DNA of 64,000 nt from Bacillota bacterium (lineage in GTDB: Bacteria > Bacillota_I > Bacilli_A > RF39 > UBA660): assembly GCA_015059365.1 (NCBI GenBank), contig SVAO01000003.1:3682-67681 (forward strand). The letters run 5' to 3'. The notes under the pieces were generated by a model, which made no database searches, had not been told where the DNA came from, and worked only from the letters and a program-made list of their open reading frames with translations. This document shows, piece by piece, positions 9,398 through 16,742 of this stretch. A program made the position numbers and the translations under genes. Position 1 is the stretch's first letter. Each line of letters starts with the position of its first letter.

Positions 9398-9676
9398 TTA
9401 TTGTTTTATTTTTCTAACATATGCTTCCATCTCTTTTAAAGCATCTCCACGCAAAGGCTTACACTTCTTATAGTTTTGTATTTCTTCTAACATTGCTTTT
9501 GCCATTCCATCACAACTACCATATCCACATGCTCCACAATTATATCCTGGTAAAAGTTTACGAAATTCATCTTCTTTATTTTCCCTACGGTTTAATTTGT
9601 AATCTATAGTTACTAAAATAACACTTAATAGTAAAGCAAGTAAAGTAAGTATTAATATTCCAATCATTTTATACAC
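9398..9676 (-). CDS. rnfB: short RnfB (TM plus N-terminal Fe-S domain only)
   Basis: LPGYNCGACGYGSC..CKP motif; last gene of the rnf cluster; no ferredoxin repeats. Confidence 0.8.
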   Translation of the reverse strand: MYKMIGILILTLLALLLSVILVTIDYKLNRRENKEDEFRKLLPGYNCGACGYGSCDGMAKAMLEEIQNYKKCKPLRGDALKEMEAYVRKIKQ

Positions 9677-9769: not shown

Positions 9770-10339
9770 TTATCCTCCTATATATCTAGAAAAAATTAAA
9801 GCCATAATAGATGCAGTAATTAACGCAATGGGTGTTCCTTTAAATGGTTTAGGAACATTAGAAGTATCTAAACGTTCTCTAATAGTTGAAAAAATATATA
9901 TAACTAGTGTAAAGCCTATTCCACTACCAAAACTAAAAATAAGTGTTTCTAATAAAGTAAAACTATTATTTATATTTAATAAAACTGTTCCCAAAACCGC
10001 ACAATTAGTAGTTATAAGAGGTAAATAAATACCTAATGCATCATATAGTTTTTTTGATTTGCTGCGAATAATAATTTCAACAATTTGAACCATTGAAGCA
10101 ATTACTAAAATAAATACAATTGTTTTTAAATATGTAGTATCTGATGGAACCAATACATAATAATATAGTAAATAAGTTATTAAACTAGAAATAGTTACAA
10201 CCCCAGTTACAGCAATTCCCATCATTACCGCATTTTTACTATCCTTAGAATTACCAATAAAAGGACATATACCTAAAAATTTAGTTAAAACTACATTTTC
10301 AGTTAAAATACTTACTATAAATATACTAATTAGATTCAT
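9770..10339 (-). CDS. rnfA: Rnf complex subunit A
   Basis: ENVVLTKFLGICPFIG and LITTNCAVLG; start reassigned to MNLISI. Confidence 0.92.
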   Translation of the reverse strand: MNLISIFIVSILTENVVLTKFLGICPFIGNSKDSKNAVMMGIAVTGVVTISSLITYLLYYYVLVPSDTTYLKTIVFILVIASMVQIVEIIIRSKSKKLYDALGIYLPLITTNCAVLGTVLLNINNSFTLLETLIFSFGSGIGFTLVIYIFSTIRERLDTSNVPKPFKGTPIALITASIMALIFSRYIGG

Positions 10340-10958
10340 CTTTTTCACCTCTTATATAATTAATTATTCCCGCAAATATTCCTAAGGTAAAAAATGCACC
10401 AGGCGGACTAATTAAAAAATTCATTGGAAATAAATTAGATGTTGGTAATTTATAAATTGCTCGGTACCCAGTTAGTGAACTTAGTCCATCCATTAATGTT
10501 ATTGTATTTGAACCTAAAATTTCTCTAAATGAAGCAATTAAAATTAAAGCAATTGTATACCCTAATCCTATTCCTAACGCATCTAACAAGCTTTTTCCTA
10601 CTCTTTCTTTTGAAGCAACGGATAATGCTCGACCTAAGACAATACAATTTACTACTATTAATGGTAAATAAATTCCTAGTGCTTTATATAAAGCTGGAAC
10701 ATAGTTTTGTAATAATAGTTCAACAATAGTTACGAATGTACCTATTATTAAAATATAAACCGGGATTTTTACATTTTCAGGAACTATTTTTTTTATAAGA
10801 GAAACAACAAAATTACTAAATAATAGAATTATTAATACACAAAATCCCATCATATATGCATTTTCTATTTTTGTAGTAACTGCAAGGGCGGGACATAAAC
10901 CTAAAAATAAAACAAAAACCGGATTTTCATTCTTTATACCATTTATTATTGTTTTCAT
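10326..10958 (-). CDS. rnfE: Rnf complex subunit E
   Basis: ENPVFVLFLGLCPALAVT, LIVVNCIVLGRA and PPGAF motifs. Confidence 0.92.
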   Translation of the reverse strand: MKTIINGIKNENPVFVLFLGLCPALAVTTKIENAYMMGFCVLIILLFSNFVVSLIKKIVPENVKIPVYILIIGTFVTIVELLLQNYVPALYKALGIYLPLIVVNCIVLGRALSVASKERVGKSLLDALGIGLGYTIALILIASFREILGSNTITLMDGLSSLTGYRAIYKLPTSNLFPMNFLISPPGAFFTLGIFAGIINYIRGEKDESN

Positions 10959-10961
10959 ATT

Positions 10962-11057
10962 TCACCTCGTTAACATTACAACTAAATATAATAAACTTGA
11001 ACAAATTAAAGCAGTTATGGTTAAAACTAAAACACCTTGTAATTTTTTATTTTCCAT
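10962..11057 (-). CDS. 31-aa single-TM micro-protein resembling the RnfG N-terminal anchor
   Basis: MENKKLQGVLVLTITALICSSLLYLVVMLTR; overlaps the rnfD stop, ends 3 nt before the rnfE ATG; AAGGAG upstream (alternative in-frame ATG at 11069). Confidence 0.6.
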   Translation of the reverse strand: MENKKLQGVLVLTITALICSSLLYLVVMLTR

Positions 11058-12813
11058 ATGTTTTATCATACTCCTTTTTGGTATTAATAACTGCTTTTCT
11101 TAAACTATCAGATGAAATGGTTGCCCCACTTATACTATCAACATTATCCAATCTTTGCTGGTTTTCAATTAATTTCTGAATATAATTATTATCAATTATT
11201 AAATTAAAATATGAATCACTTTGTTCTATGACTGTAATTGATTCTATAATCGCATTTTCAAAAGTTATTTTTAAATCCAAATTACCACCAAAACTTTGTT
11301 GCCTAACTTCATAAATAATTTTGCCATTTTCTTCTTTACTACTCATAACTTGAAAATTAGAATTATTATCTTCTTTAAAATCAGTACCATTATAATCATT
11401 AAGTACATTTATAATCATTTGTTTTAAAGCTCTAGATGTTACAGTTGCACCACTTACAGTATCCAAATTATTAAGATTTTTTTGATAAGATACTAGTTTT
11501 TCTATATATTTCTCATCCACTATCTTTTGATAAAAAGATTCATTTTGTTCAATAATTTCTATACTAACTATTTTACCATTATCAATAATAATATTCCCTT
11601 TTAAAAGTCCTGAATAACCTTTTTGGGTAACAACATAATTAGTATTATTCTCAATAATTTCTTTAGAAATAATATTAAAGTTAGAATCTTTAACTGTAGA
11701 ATCAGCTTTAAAACTATTTCCTATAAAACCACTTACAACAATTATTAAAAACCAAGCTATCAAAAATGGAATTATAGCTTTCTTAAAACTAAATCTCGCC
11801 TTTGCACCTATTCTATCAATAATAAAAACCATCATATTCATAGTAAGAATACTTGTTAATACACCTTCTGGAAATGGAGTTAAATACCTAAAAACCACAG
11901 TTAATATACCCAAAAATAATCCATATAAAACTTGCCCTATTGGAGTTGTAGGACTAGTAACCGGATCAGTAGCCATAAAAACAGCACCAAACATTAATCC
12001 ACCACTAAATATTTGAAATAATGGATACCAAATACCTAAACCATTAATACTACCAATCATATATGTCATTAAAAAAACCGTTAAAATATACATTGTTGGA
12101 ATTTTCCATTTTATAACTTTAGTAATAGTTAAATAAATAAAACCAACAATACATAATAACGCACTAACTTCGCCTAACGAACCGGGAATCATTCCTATAA
12201 AAAAATTCCAAAGACTTCCATACGGTAAAACTAATGTCTCATAAGTTCCAATACCAGAAACTAAGGATGCATTAGATAATGGAGTCGCTAAAGACAATGT
12301 ATCTAACTCATATTGATTTAAATATCCACCATTCTTGCTAATAACTACAGCATACGATGAAATTATAAATAATCTTCCTATTAAGGCGGGATTAAAAATA
12401 TTATTACCAAATCCACCAAACAATAATTTCCCGACAAAAGTTGCCATAAATGCTCCAAAAATCACAATTGAAATTGGAGTATTAATAGGAAGAATAAGTC
12501 CTAAAAAAAGACCTGGAAATATACTAAAAGAGCTACTTAAATATTTCTTTAAACCATCCTTTTTTTTCTTTAAGAAAAATAAAGCATATAAAACCTCTAT
12601 TAAAAATGAAGTGATAGTAGGAATTAAAATAAATAATAACGGATTAAACATTTCCACAAAATTGATATAACCTTTATTATAAGGAATTATCCCATTTTTA
12701 TAAAAAGAAAATAAGATTATTGGTAATAATGCAATTAATAAATGAACCATATTTTTATTAGTTGAATTATTATGCTTTTTAAATGGTCCAATATTCAAAT
12801 GAAAATCTTTCAC
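11047..12813 (-). CDS. rnfD: RnfD fused to two C-terminal FMN-binding (RnfG-like) domains
   Basis: RnfD core (NIFNPAL, SLATPL, ATDPVTSP) then an extra TM and two SGAT flavinylation motifs (DTVSGATVTS, DSISGATISS). Confidence 0.9.
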   Translation of the reverse strand: MKDFHLNIGPFKKHNNSTNKNMVHLLIALLPIILFSFYKNGIIPYNKGYINFVEMFNPLLFILIPTITSFLIEVLYALFFLKKKKDGLKKYLSSSFSIFPGLFLGLILPINTPISIVIFGAFMATFVGKLLFGGFGNNIFNPALIGRLFIISSYAVVISKNGGYLNQYELDTLSLATPLSNASLVSGIGTYETLVLPYGSLWNFFIGMIPGSLGEVSALLCIVGFIYLTITKVIKWKIPTMYILTVFLMTYMIGSINGLGIWYPLFQIFSGGLMFGAVFMATDPVTSPTTPIGQVLYGLFLGILTVVFRYLTPFPEGVLTSILTMNMMVFIIDRIGAKARFSFKKAIIPFLIAWFLIIVVSGFIGNSFKADSTVKDSNFNIISKEIIENNTNYVVTQKGYSGLLKGNIIIDNGKIVSIEIIEQNESFYQKIVDEKYIEKLVSYQKNLNNLDTVSGATVTSRALKQMIINVLNDYNGTDFKEDNNSNFQVMSSKEENGKIIYEVRQQSFGGNLDLKITFENAIIESITVIEQSDSYFNLIIDNNYIQKLIENQQRLDNVDSISGATISSDSLRKAVINTKKEYDKTYGK

Positions 12814-14099
12814 TTCTTACCATTCCCTTCTTTTTTTATAAGTGTTTTAGCTTCTTTCACACATTCTCTAATGTTAATTTTTGAAGGACAAACATACGAG
12901 CACAAACCACACTCAATACATTTATCAGCGTTTAATCCTGTTAAAGATTCTACTTTAGATAGACTATCTTTTATTAAAACTGGTGATAATTTAGAAGGAC
13001 ATATAGAAACACATTTGCCACATCTAAAACACTCTAAAGATTTTTCTTTGTTAAGTTTCTTCATAACTAATACGCAATTTAAATTAGATGCGATAACAAA
13101 ATCATCATCAGCAATACTACTACCCATCATTGGTCCACCAGCACAAATTACAACATCTTTGTTACGTTTATATCCACCTATTGCTTCAATAACATCTTTA
13201 ACTGGCGTCCCTATTTTTACATAAACATTTTGAGGATTTTTTAACATATCGCCAGTAAATGTGACTATTCTTTCAATTAATGGCTTATTATACTTTAATG
13301 CTTCATAAATCGCATAAATTGTTGATATATTATTTACTACAATTCCTTTTTCTAAGGGAGTGGTCCTATAATTAATATTTTTTATATATTTAACTAAATT
13401 TTTTTCCCATCCTATCGGATAAATATTTGGTAAAGTAACAAGTTTTATTTTTGGGTAAGTACCCAGATAATTTTCAAATAGTTCATTTATTGTAGTATCT
13501 TTTTTTACTCCAATAAAACATTCTTTAATACCATTGATTTCCATGATAGCATCTATTGCTTCCAAAATTTCTTCACACTTTTCTTTTATTAAAACAAAGT
13601 CTGCCGTAATATAAGGTTCACATTCAACTGCATTTACAATCAATGTTTTCAACTTCTTATTAGTATTATATTTTACATAAGTAGGAAATCCAAATCCACC
13701 CATTCCAATAATTCCACATTCTTGTAAGCGACTAACAAACTCTTCATGTGAAAAATTATTAATTTTATTTCTAACAGCTTGCTTTTCCTCTATCTTTTCT
13801 TTAAAATCATTCTCTATTACAACACATTTTACTAAAGTTCCATCTATATATTTTTTCTCTACAAAATCTATTACTACTCCACTTACACTAGAATGGATTG
13901 GAAGCCTAAAATTTCCCTTTCTTTTGGCAACTATAGACCCTTTATATATATAATCACCTTTTTTTACAACAGTAGTAATATTCCTATCATCACCACTGAT
14001 TAAGGGGATATAAACATATTTAGGTCTAGTAAAAAAATTCAATTTTCTTTTTTTAGTTAATTCTTTTCCTGCATCTATCTTTGTTCCTACAATCATCAT
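12810..14099 (-). CDS. rnfC: Rnf complex subunit C
   Basis: IHSSVSG, GMGGFGFPT, NAVECEPYIT and two CxxCxxCxxxCP clusters. Confidence 0.93.
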   Translation of the reverse strand: MMIVGTKIDAGKELTKKRKLNFFTRPKYVYIPLISGDDRNITTVVKKGDYIYKGSIVAKRKGNFRLPIHSSVSGVVIDFVEKKYIDGTLVKCVVIENDFKEKIEEKQAVRNKINNFSHEEFVSRLQECGIIGMGGFGFPTYVKYNTNKKLKTLIVNAVECEPYITADFVLIKEKCEEILEAIDAIMEINGIKECFIGVKKDTTINELFENYLGTYPKIKLVTLPNIYPIGWEKNLVKYIKNINYRTTPLEKGIVVNNISTIYAIYEALKYNKPLIERIVTFTGDMLKNPQNVYVKIGTPVKDVIEAIGGYKRNKDVVICAGGPMMGSSIADDDFVIASNLNCVLVMKKLNKEKSLECFRCGKCVSICPSKLSPVLIKDSLSKVESLTGLNADKCIECGLCSYVCPSKINIRECVKEAKTLIKKEGNGKK

Positions 14100-14161: not shown

Positions 14162-16369
14162 TTAATTCCTTATTTTAGACAAATACCAAGATAAATCTTG
14201 TTCATCAAAAATATTTATTCTAACTGAATTAATCCCCATTTCATAGTAATCATTAATATAATTATCTATTCTTGGCTGATAATTGTATATATACATTAAA
14301 CCATTTTTTTCTTTAACCGGATAATAATGATTAATTCGATCCACAAGATATAAAAAATTTCTTTGATATAGAGAATTTAGACTAAATTTACTAATCATCA
14401 TTTCTTCTCTACCATAAACAACAACTTCCAAATTAGGTTTTTTTAAATATCTATCTTTATATGATGTTATGATATCTTTTATCTCTGATTTTGTCAATTC
14501 ATAAGATAACGTTACCTTTTCTAAACCTACACTATGAAGGAATGCAACTGCATAAGAATTAAAAACATTTAAAGAAAAATCTCCTACCTTCTTATTTGTA
14601 TAACTTAAACTCCCTAATTCTCCTATCATTAATGGATAATTGAAATTATACATATCATAATTTACTCTTGGAACTTTAAATATTAAACGACTATCATTAT
14701 TCTTAAATAAAGCTACATCATCACTATAAATATAGTCAAAATTATGCTTTTTAATTTTATCATAAAACTTACTATCTTCTAATAAGACGTTTAACTCTCT
14801 ACTCTCTAAAAAATCAGGAACATCTATATTATAGCTATCTTTTAAATAATTTGTTTTATAAATTCTTAAATTTAATAATTGTTCAACTGCATTTCTTCTA
14901 ATTTCATTTAAATCTCTATTATTAACATATATATTTTCATCTTTAATAATCTCTAGTTTTTCTAAAGCAAAAGGTGTATCACCTAATTTATTTATTTGTT
15001 TTTCTATTTTATCATTATCAAGCGGAGCATTATTTGCTTCTTGCACAGAAATACCAGTAATAGAAATATTATTTTTACCATCGCTCAAATTTAAATATAA
15101 AGGTTTATTTGCTTGCAAAATTATTTTTCCTGTGATTGCAATTTTTTTAGAAATTTTATTTATTTTATCTTTTAATAATTTAATTTGTTTAATATCAGTA
15201 GTTTTTACTACTTTGCTATCACTCTTAATAGTTTTTATTTTTTCATTCAAGAAAATAGTAACTGTATCACCTCTTTTAGCACTATTAACTTTTTCTTTAT
15301 TGCGATAAATATTAGTAACTACACATCCTATATCATAATCAATAATTCTTATGCCATCACCAATATTCAATTCATCTAAAAGTTTAATTGTTAATTTATT
15401 TTTATTATATTCTATAACTTTAGCAATCTCTATCCCCATATGATTTGGTCTAAAACTATTAGTTATATTATTATTTAACTCATTAAATAAAAATCCACAA
15501 GTAAATTCTCTATTAAATATTTTCTTAAGTTCTGTTAAATAATGATCATCAATAAAAACTTTACCCGTCTCATAATATGAATCAATGGCTTTACGATACA
15601 AAGACACAACAAGATAAACATATTCTGGTCGCTTCATTCTTCCTTCTATTTTAAAACTATCTATTCCACTTTCAATCAAATCTTGAATATGTTCCAAAGT
15701 ACACAAATCTTTCATACTCAAAACATAATTTTCATGATTTAATTTTTTGTTATCACTTGATAACAATTGGTATGGTAAACGACATGTGCCTGCACATGCT
15801 CCCCTGTTTCCACTACGACCACCAATTAAACTACTCATCAAACATTGCCCAGAATAACTTACACATAAAGCCCCATGTACAAATAGTTCTAATTCAATAT
15901 TCGTATTCATTCTGATGTTTTTTACTAAACCAATATCTGTTTCTCGAGCCAAAACCACTCTTTTTAATCCCAATTTTTCACAAAACTTAACGCCTTCTAA
16001 ATTATGGATGTGCAATTGGGTGGATGCATGAATTTCTAATTTTGGATACAATTTACGGGCTAAATCAATCATTCCTAGATCCTGCATAATAACCGCATCA
16101 ACATTATTTCTATGTAAAAAATCTATAAATTCAATAAACGTAGGAACTTCATGTTCCTTAATTAATGTATTAACAGTAATATAAACTTTTACTCCATATA
16201 TATGGCAAGTTTTTATCAACTCTTTAATTTCATCATTTGAAAAATTTGGAGCAAATTGTCGTGCTCCAAACATATATCCACCTAAATAAACAGCATCACA
16301 CCCTGCATTAATTGCTGCATTTAGTGATTCAATCGAACCAACAGGTGCTAATAACTCTACTTTTTTCAT
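14162..16369 (-). CDS. U32 family protein, RlhA-like (23S rRNA hydroxylation) with C-terminal extension
   Basis: ELLAPVG, HASTQ, FVHGALCVSYSGQC, NRGACAGTCR and KIEGRMK; start reassigned to MKKVELL. Confidence 0.85.
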   Translation of the reverse strand: MKKVELLAPVGSIESLNAAINAGCDAVYLGGYMFGARQFAPNFSNDEIKELIKTCHIYGVKVYITVNTLIKEHEVPTFIEFIDFLHRNNVDAVIMQDLGMIDLARKLYPKLEIHASTQLHIHNLEGVKFCEKLGLKRVVLARETDIGLVKNIRMNTNIELELFVHGALCVSYSGQCLMSSLIGGRSGNRGACAGTCRLPYQLLSSDNKKLNHENYVLSMKDLCTLEHIQDLIESGIDSFKIEGRMKRPEYVYLVVSLYRKAIDSYYETGKVFIDDHYLTELKKIFNREFTCGFLFNELNNNITNSFRPNHMGIEIAKVIEYNKNKLTIKLLDELNIGDGIRIIDYDIGCVVTNIYRNKEKVNSAKRGDTVTIFLNEKIKTIKSDSKVVKTTDIKQIKLLKDKINKISKKIAITGKIILQANKPLYLNLSDGKNNISITGISVQEANNAPLDNDKIEKQINKLGDTPFALEKLEIIKDENIYVNNRDLNEIRRNAVEQLLNLRIYKTNYLKDSYNIDVPDFLESRELNVLLEDSKFYDKIKKHNFDYIYSDDVALFKNNDSRLIFKVPRVNYDMYNFNYPLMIGELGSLSYTNKKVGDFSLNVFNSYAVAFLHSVGLEKVTLSYELTKSEIKDIITSYKDRYLKKPNLEVVVYGREEMMISKFSLNSLYQRNFLYLVDRINHYYPVKEKNGLMYIYNYQPRIDNYINDYYEMGINSVRINIFDEQDLSWYLSKIRN

Positions 16370-16370
16370 A

Positions 16371-16742
16371 TTAACTACCCAAACAGTCACACAAATCAGC
16401 TTCTGTATAATTATAAGTATACTGATTTATACTCTCATCAAAATTAATTTTAATGCAACCGTTTAACTCCTTTTTAGTTTTTGGATTTACAATATCCTTA
16501 TTTTCTAACAATCCCGATTTTTTTAATTCTTCCAAAGTTAAAATATAACACTTATCTACCTTATTTATATTCGTAGTTCCCCATGAACGTGCAATATTCT
16601 CAATTGAATCTATTTGTTTATCTAATAAATTTTGTGACGATGCAGAAAAAGCACTCTTTAATACTGGAAAACAAATTAATGAAATTACCCCTAAAATAAT
16701 AACAATCGCTAATAATTCAACTAACGTAAACCCTCGTTTCAT
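16371..16742 (-). CDS. type IV (pre)pilin
   Basis: Class III signal MKRG/FTLVE followed by a hydrophobic helix. Confidence 0.88.
   Translation of the reverse strand: MKRGFTLVELLAIVIILGVISLICFPVLKSAFSASSQNLLDKQIDSIENIARSWGTTNINKVDKCYILTLEELKKSGLLENKDIVNPKTKKELNGCIKINFDESINQYTYNYTEADLCDCLGS

Follow-up and report, generated by a model that had tools for sequence, protein, structure and literature searches.

We analysed a 64,000-nt stretch of DNA (hereafter the window), corresponding to positions 3,682-67,681 of the forward strand of contig SVAO01000003.1 (assembly GCA_015059365.1), from an uncultured gut bacterium with a small genome; the assembly amounts to 0.92 Mb at 27% G+C and is 84% complete. 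On its minus strand the window carries a tightly packed operon for an Rnf complex, in which rnfC is followed by an rnfD gene extended by two FMN_bind domains (rnfD-FMN2), a micro-open reading frame (micro-ORF) of 31 codons, rnfE, rnfA, and an rnfB gene encoding just 92 amino acids (aa). This is the canonical gene order, rnfCDGEAB, without rnfG, and all six reading frames of the operon are intact (Table 1).

Table 1. Features of the rnf operon, listed in the direction of transcription, with positions in the window.
Feature	Position	Strand	Assignment and evidence
rnfC (429 aa)	12810..14099	-	NADH/FMN module, two [4Fe-4S] motifs; TIGR01945 2.2e-109; Complex1_51K, RnfC_N, SLBB, Fer4
rnfD with extra transmembrane helix and two FMN_bind domains (588 aa)	11047..12813	-	ORF call, Pfam, genome scan, homologues, AlphaFold2
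RnfD core, residues 9-341	11791..12789	-	Pfam NQR2_RnfD_RnfE (PF03116) 2.2e-77; T177 codon at 12283-12285, in DTLSLAT
Extra C-terminal transmembrane helix, residues 343-367	11713..11787	-	AlphaFold2 helix, preceded by KARFSFKK; predicted in-to-out
FMN_bind domain 1, residues 379-475	11389..11679	-	Pfam; T457 codon at 11443-11445
FMN_bind domain 2, residues 487-586	11056..11355	-	Pfam; T565 codon at 11119-11121
Micro-ORF (31 codons)	10962..11057	-	Probable RnfG transmembrane anchor without flavodomain
rnfE (210 aa)	10326..10958	-	PF02508 3.3e-61; NF009070 above cut-off; Cys22 and Cys105
rnfA (192 aa)	9770..10348	-	TIGR01943 7.3e-70, above cut-off; strong PF02508 match; Cys28 and Cys116
Mini-rnfB (92 aa)	9398..9676	-	Transmembrane helix and single CxxCx4Cx16C [4Fe-4S] (FdI) domain; PF04060 4.7e-11; TIGR01944 positions 5-80 of 190

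The RnfD fusion protein

In a six-frame scan of the whole assembly, both FMN_bind copies exceed the curated cut-off within a single frame of 589 codons (4.5e-12 and 5.7e-9), and the two domains are 37% identical to each other over 110 residues (E = 5e-23). Three motifs of the form Dxx[ST]xA[ST], each a predicted site for covalent attachment of flavin mononucleotide (FMN), are present on the chain: DTLSLAT (T177) in the RnfD core, DTVSGAT (T457) in domain 1, and DSISGAT (T565) in domain 2. An earlier note on this stretch had described an RnfD core followed by an extra transmembrane segment and two tandem FMN-binding domains, with three flavinylation sites in all, and the Pfam domain count, the structure model and the motifs agree with that description.

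The RnfD core scores slightly below the cut-off of TIGR01946 (202.8 bits, with the cut-off at 207.05), and in Foldseek it matches the RnfD chain of the C. tetanomorphum complex, 7zc6_D, with a TM-score of 0.83. T177 is invariant in an alignment of 72 sequences, and its counterpart in RnfD of C. tetanomorphum and A. woodii is the threonine of TTAT; the core retains the conserved Thr, the candidate site for covalent FMN. The residue just before it is more variable. At position 176 (12286-12288), most relatives have Ser, Pro, Gly or Val rather than the canonical Ala ahead of the invariant Thr (for example, DTISSSTPL; the window reads DTLSLAT), which may reflect a relaxed ApbE motif in the clade.

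The extra helix, whose sequence IIPFLIAWFLIIVVSGFIG begins at residue 347, was modelled by AlphaFold2 (72-sequence alignment, mean predicted local distance difference test score (pLDDT) 78.8) along with the helices of RnfD and two domains made of four strands plus helices, the first of them with pLDDT of about 90 or higher. Because basic residues precede this helix and the C-terminus of RnfD is cytoplasmic in 7ZC6 (PMC9588780), the helix is predicted to run in-to-out, placing both FMN_bind domains, each with a Dxx[ST]GA[ST] motif, outside the cytoplasm. An extra helix also follows the RnfD core in unfused RnfD proteins, namely those of Merdibacter (392 aa) and Izemoplasmatales (396 aa). Since it is present without any fused domain, we regard it as a clade-wide trait of RnfD, and we rejected the idea that it is the RnfG anchor.

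The closest solved structure for FMN_bind domain 1 is domain D1 of CbFMN4 (8P2B), with a TM-score of 0.80, a root-mean-square deviation of 2.3 Å and 31% identity in Foldseek, whereas RnfG and NqrC chains align poorly to it. In a sequence alignment, Tyr11, Thr37 and Thr67 of CbFMN4 correspond to Y400, S426 and T457. CbFMN4 and SaFMN3 (8P2B and 8P2A) thus share with the window protein a compact fold and the DxxSGAT motif, but they are secreted as soluble proteins, have flexible linkers and do not belong to Rnf, whereas the domains in the window are carried on RnfD. Both are flavinylated when co-expressed with ApbE, as established by in-gel fluorescence, mass spectrometry and crystal structures (PMC10339131).

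The fusion is not a product of assembly. An identical 588-aa protein is recorded on 15 contigs, and PF03116 and PF04205 occur together in all 120 homologues listed from JGI, ENA, Logan and NCBI, most of which are 570-604 aa long. Because this architecture is common to all 120 listed homologues, we rejected an assembly artefact, an outcome that would have undone the earlier note's reading of the gene. Among the 115 homologues of two-domain length, the flavinylation motif is retained in 112 for domain 1 and in 108 for domain 2. Mean pairwise identity across the family is 0.65 for the RnfD core, 0.51 for domain 1 and 0.46 for domain 2.

The rnfG position and the rest of the operon

A canonical RnfG consists of an N-terminal transmembrane helix, a linker helix and an FMN-binding alpha/beta domain. 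The six-frame FMN_bind scan found no canonical rnfG in the operon or elsewhere in the genome (84% complete), and the rnfG locus holds the 31-aa transmembrane micro-ORF alone. The genome contains only three FMN_bind copies, two in the RnfD fusion and one in a 144-aa lipoprotein that lies beside apbE on another contig; genomes of the same genus show the same FMN_bind pattern and no other rnfG. The apbE gene, which the earlier note had suggested looking for, is present (contig C9:47289-48281 of this genome, G000; PF02424, 182 bits), and its product, which has an N-terminal anchor, is predicted to be exported. Over C9:47289-49618, the gene cluster encodes this ApbE, a NusG_II protein, a Hpre_diP_synt_I/ECF-S-like membrane protein and the FMN_bind lipoprotein. 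In the motif of the lipoprotein, DAVSGCT, Cys replaces the Ala before Thr. We considered this lipoprotein as a substitute for RnfG and rejected it, as it is missing from several genomes in which RnfD has one fused domain.

The micro-ORF, MENKKLQGVLVLTITALICSSLLYLVVMLTR, begins 8 nt before the end of the rnfD stop codon, thus overlapping it, and ends 3 nt before the rnfE ATG. A matching ORF directly follows rnfD in 38 loci, including about 12 in which an unrelated gene lies between it and rnfE, and because it is kept after rnfD even where it is separated from rnfE, it is not merely a leader of rnfE. In pairwise comparisons of 36 distinct copies, differences at the three codon positions are 0.36/0.16/0.51 and dN/dS has a median of 0.30; stops interrupt the other two frames in 33 and 35 of the 36 copies. 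By these measures the micro-ORF evolves as a coding sequence under purifying selection. An exact look-up showed that the peptide has already been called as an unnamed gene in public collections.

The genes that separate the micro-ORF from rnfE encode 178-276 aa (L007, L010, L012, L015, L016, L025, L033, L034, L038, L045 and L050). Compared without a family-library search, they lack an FMN_bind domain and fall into at least two families. We had considered the ORFs in the rnfD-rnfE gap of these roughly 12 loci as a hidden rnfG, and rejected them as unrelated and without an FMN_bind domain.

What, then, is the micro-ORF? The lineage that branches most basally on the RnfD tree, represented by locus L044, has a longer variant of 43-45 aa (...VYETTKPQIEY...), which JGI/IMG labels 'RnfG subunit' and which matches an RnfG model in register (E ~0.03). 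In hhalign, the micro-ORF matches RnfG N-termini at 92.7% and RnfB N-terminal anchors at 92.6%, while the extra helix of RnfD scores about 3% and reversed sequences 3.8%. Since the RnfB-anchor control equals the RnfG score, the assignment to RnfG rests on synteny, on the longer variant and on the absence of any other rnfG. Taken together, the micro-ORF is most likely the membrane anchor of RnfG, left after deletion of the flavodomain. The RnfG helix of the solved complex belongs to a four-helix bundle, whose other members come from RnfB, RnfA and RnfE, one from each (PMC9588780), and this offers a structural reason for keeping it. A programmed frameshift that joins domain 2 to the micro-ORF was also considered, and was rejected because the helix would then be inverted against the positive-inside rule.

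RnfC, RnfA and RnfE are those of an Rnf complex. RnfC scores 365.9 bits against TIGR01945 (cut-off 245.95), with the NADH/FMN site and the two [4Fe-4S] motifs of Rnf, and RnfA and RnfE both retain the cysteine pairs of the intramembrane [2Fe-2S] centre. The mini-RnfB has the membrane anchor and the FdI domain and lacks the C-terminal polyferredoxin domain, which according to a 2025 RNF/NQR review holds 2-7 clusters (PMC12174285). An RnfB of 83-117 aa occurs in nearly all surveyed loci where rnfB was detected, those of cultured Erysipelotrichaceae included, with one exception of 224 aa. A precedent is Thermotoga maritima, for which an FdI-only RnfB has been stated (PMC9588780) and which belongs to a different phylum.

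Compared with canonical RnfABCDGE complexes (C. tetanomorphum, 7ZC6; A. woodii, 9ERI; A. vinelandii, 8AHX), the RnfC, RnfD core, RnfE and RnfA of the window are recognisable, and their cofactor residues and gene order are kept. However, where the canonical complex has an RnfG flavodomain subunit, the window has a 31-aa helix at the rnfG locus, an RnfD with an extra transmembrane helix and two compact FMN_bind domains, and an FdI-only RnfB. The NQR/RNF-like two-subunit system differs in other respects: its NqrB/RnfD-like subunit ends in a cytosolic PF00175 NAD-binding domain and has lost the flavinylation Thr of RnfD, whereas there is no PF00175 match in the window and T177 is conserved.

Upstream, the operon adjoins a gene of the peptidase U32 family (14162-16390, minus strand). 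A 738-742-aa form of this protein is encoded upstream in the window and at L005, and a 401-402-aa form is encoded downstream of the rnf operon at L012, L015, L016 and L050; this proximity may reflect either a functional link or chance. The genes downstream of the operon gave no family matches, and no redox partner adjoins the operon. A scan for promoters and terminators was uninformative in the AT-rich DNA of the window.

Relatives and the origin of the fused domains

We surveyed 80 loci from named genome records. Loci from the lineage to which the window belongs, which is made up of small-genome, RF39-like metagenome-assembled genomes (MAGs) labelled 'Bacilli/Tenericutes/Mollicutes', encode RnfD with one fused domain (RnfD-FMN) or two (RnfD-FMN-FMN) and lack an rnfG gene of its own. 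An independent RnfG, about 170-207 aa long, is retained in Erysipelotrichaceae, Acholeplasmatales and Izemoplasmatales, usually alongside accessory FMN_bind domains that are either fused to RnfD or separately encoded. Merdibacter has RnfD and a normal 171-aa RnfG with no accessory FMN_bind domain; Amedibacillus, Longicatena and [Eubacterium] hominis combine RnfD-FMN with a normal RnfG; in Izemoplasmatales, RnfD and RnfG are accompanied by a two-domain protein; and in Anaerorhabdus and at L063, RnfG bears one to three further domains. Up to five FMN_bind domains are stacked between rnfD and rnfE at L063. The operons of Erysipelotrichaceae and Acholeplasmatales, such as those of Amedibacillus dolichus (L072) and Longicatena caecimuris (L073), share with the window the extra helix of RnfD, a fused FMN_bind domain, the mini-RnfB and the gene order, but their RnfG is still complete, at about 170 aa and with an anchor of its own, whereas that of the window is not. 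Several MAG records among L011, L012, L021, L022, L024, L038, L046 and L047 are titled 'uncultured Muribaculaceae' or 'Ignavibacteriales' and contain a Bacilli-type rnf operon (51-63% identity); these labels look wrong.

Within the window's order, 120 of 301 genomes have an RnfD-family match. The 45 strongest matches comprise about 30 frames of 460-510 aa, with one fused domain, 6 of 574-604 aa, with two, and about 10 unfused frames of 316-394 aa. About 70 genomes of the order have an RnfD-family frame of some 300 aa that scores weakly (40-90 bits) and differs from true RnfD; the window's genome has no such frame. Three loci, L085 (G013), L087 (G206) and L088 (G038), consist of rnfC and rnfD followed by unrelated genes, with an RnfD of 315-372 aa that has no FMN domain; no rnfE, rnfA or rnfB was found near this pair, and no FMN_bind domain was found anywhere in G013. 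These loci are either decay intermediates or a two-subunit module.

The fused domains could have arisen in two ways. First, an accessory domain already on RnfD could have been kept while the flavodomain of RnfG was deleted. Second, the RnfG flavodomain itself could have moved onto RnfD, leaving its anchor behind, so that the fused domains would be RnfG orthologues; the mechanism would be the same and only the history would differ. In a tree of 128 FMN_bind domains, one clade (support 99/96) contains only the first domains of separately encoded, self-anchored proteins, that is, canonical RnfG domains. Both window domains fall outside it, in a clade (96/89) that also holds RnfD-fused domains of Acholeplasmatales and the domains of the Izemoplasmatales two-domain proteins, all of which coexist with a canonical RnfG. 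This grouping speaks against a moved RnfG domain, as does the compact CbFMN4-type fold, to which RnfG and NqrC are poor matches. The second history would also need a rearrangement, since the domain lies upstream of what would be its own anchor. On the other hand, domain 1 scores slightly higher against the canonical RnfG profile (37.8 bits) than against the fused-domain profiles of Acholeplasmatales (29.4 bits) and Erysipelotrichaceae (22.8 bits), and midpoint rooting of the tree makes the RF39-type and canonical clades sisters. Weighing these points, we think it quite improbable that the RnfG domain itself was moved. Deletion of the RnfG domain is favoured mainly by parsimony, because a single deletion suffices, starting from a state (RnfD-FMN plus RnfG) that is still present in sister lineages. 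In this history, the ancestor would have had RnfD with its extra helix and one FMN_bind domain alongside a full RnfG, as Erysipelotrichaceae and Acholeplasmatales still do; the lineage of the window would then have lost the RnfG flavodomain and retained the helix as part of the bundle with the helices of RnfB, RnfA and RnfE.

In the domain tree, domain 1 groups with the sole domain of one-domain relatives. The second domains are scattered over several distinct groups, and one of these lies within the first domains. When a tree of the RnfD core is rooted with Erysipelotrichaceae and Acholeplasmatales, the basal lineages are one-domain, and about 8 changes are required to explain the two-domain state, with at least 3 forced by well-supported branches. 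Domain 2 therefore appears from these trees to have been gained or lost repeatedly.

A proposed tethered flavin shuttle in Rnf

Based upon these observations, we propose, with somewhat better than even confidence, that the window gene is the RnfD of a streamlined but complete ferredoxin:NAD+ oxidoreductase (Rnf), in which RnfD itself would supply in cis the extracytoplasmic flavin shuttle of RnfG. Without a canonical rnfG, one fused domain would have to do the job of RnfG, and replacement of the RnfG electron shuttle by one such domain, with a net gain over a standard Rnf of one flavin, is what the gene content most likely indicates. The predicted total of three covalent flavins equals that of the Erysipelotrichaceae relatives, which reach three with RnfG and one RnfD-fused domain. 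Domain 1 would swing between the [2Fe-2S] centre of RnfA/E and the FMN on RnfD, and electrons would leave reduced ferredoxin by way of mini-RnfB, reach the tethered FMN across RnfA/E, and continue over RnfD and RnfC to NAD+, driving ion export. The genome encodes pyruvate:ferredoxin oxidoreductase (PFOR) and no [FeFe] hydrogenase was found in it; for this reason, Rnf is the likely route from reduced ferredoxin to NAD+.

Domain 2 would be a recurrently gained duplicate that adds a third covalent flavin, and it could act in several ways. It could be a side acceptor, taking electrons from domain 1 and either handing them to soluble external acceptors or buffering them, a role we put forward tentatively. 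A place as an in-line relay inside the Rnf path seems doubtful, and complete redundancy, with no distinct role, seems less plausible still. We lean towards an added role because one-domain relatives manage without domain 2 and because it has been gained repeatedly. A more far-reaching version combines these elements: RnfG would be reduced to a 31-residue transmembrane micro-subunit, its shuttle replaced in cis by the RnfD-tethered flavodomains, and domain 2 would be an electron outlet, making Rnf a ferredoxin- or NADH-driven reductase of extracellular acceptors in a gut bacterium without hydrogenase. As a whole, we judge this combination unlikely.

Alternatively, both fused domains could form an extended outer flavin wire on an otherwise standard Rnf, carrying electrons to extracellular acceptors as an outlet of the extracellular electron transfer (EET) type. 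The earlier note had suggested a reading of this kind, and Méheust et al. had already published it as a hypothesis: they reported RNF clusters with a multi-flavinylated RnfG and proposed a second, outward pathway for them (2021, eLife; PMC8238504). The stacked domains of L063 fit such a wire, secreted multi-flavin proteins have domains of this compact type, and the repeated gain of domain 2 suggests an added function. However, with no canonical RnfG, the Rnf path itself requires one of the two domains, and most relatives in the order have a single fused domain. Nor is there an evident recipient, as no full fumarate-reductase-like (FAD_binding_2) extracytosolic flavoprotein was found in the genome (84% complete) and, as noted above, no redox partner adjoins the operon. 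We therefore consider a two-domain outer wire improbable. Listeria-type flavin-based EET (PplA, Ndh2, EetA/B, DmkA/B; the quinone branch) uses PplA, a two-domain FMN lipoprotein; in a search of this genome for the FMN_bind, ApbE and FAD_binding_2 families, the one other FMN_bind protein is a lipoprotein with a single domain. The rewiring of Rnf that the earlier note described is real, but not in the form it proposed, as it overlooked the absence of canonical rnfG and hence that one domain must take over RnfG's job; the outer flavin chain would be extended by one flavin, not two, and the link to external acceptors has found no direct support.

The operon might also be a decaying remnant, in which the fusion has no current function. 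Such decay would be in line with the 181 of 301 genomes of the order that have no RnfD and with the remnants that hold only rnfC and rnfD. Yet the six frames are intact, the RnfD core is 65% and the fused domains are 46-51% identical across the family, the flavinylation motifs are kept in more than 93% of homologues, the micro-ORF is under purifying selection, and PFOR without a hydrogenase gives Rnf a clear job. We consider decay very improbable.

Several points weigh against our proposal of an Rnf with an RnfD-tethered shuttle. With a genome 84% complete, the absences on which it draws (rnfG, hydrogenase, reductases) are provisional. The micro-ORF's profile match is non-specific for RnfG and indicates only an 'N-terminal anchor'. 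The domain tree is built on few columns and has long branches, and profile-profile scores do not separate descent of the fused domains from an accessory domain and from the RnfG domain. Finally, many relatives in the order lack Rnf and some have only rnfC and rnfD, so that the complex is dispensable in the clade.

The RNF clusters of Méheust et al. share with the window an Rnf operon with more than one extracytosolic FMN_bind domain and an ApbE in the genome, but their multiple FMN domains are on RnfG, whereas in the window RnfD carries them and RnfG has lost its own. The words 'fused' and 'fusion' do not occur in the searched text of that paper. RnfG counts as a core subunit both in a 2024 preprint from that group (Huang, Méheust, Light) and in the 2025 RNF/NQR review, neither of which mentions fusions of RnfD, and we found no description of this architecture in the literature on RF39 plus Rnf or on RnfD-RnfG fusions. 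As multi-flavinylated Rnf was already known, the interest of the locus lies mainly in the replacement of RnfG: a conserved respiratory complex has been rebuilt across a clade, and the system itself is of a known kind.

Automated annotation overlooks a subunit here and lists RnfG as missing from a group of gut Bacilli that is abundant and uncultured; this affects metabolic reconstructions that score Rnf by the presence of its subunits. RnfG and NqrC have been described as a moving switch that gates electron transfer and ion pumping (PMC12174285). The lineage of the window would offer a natural experiment on this view, with a shuttle of a smaller type, tethered to a different subunit, and with the old anchor surviving as a micro-protein. 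Close relatives provide one- and two-domain versions side by side. All this sets limits, open to testing, on the reach and the starting point of the shuttle's swing and on the role of the RnfG helix.

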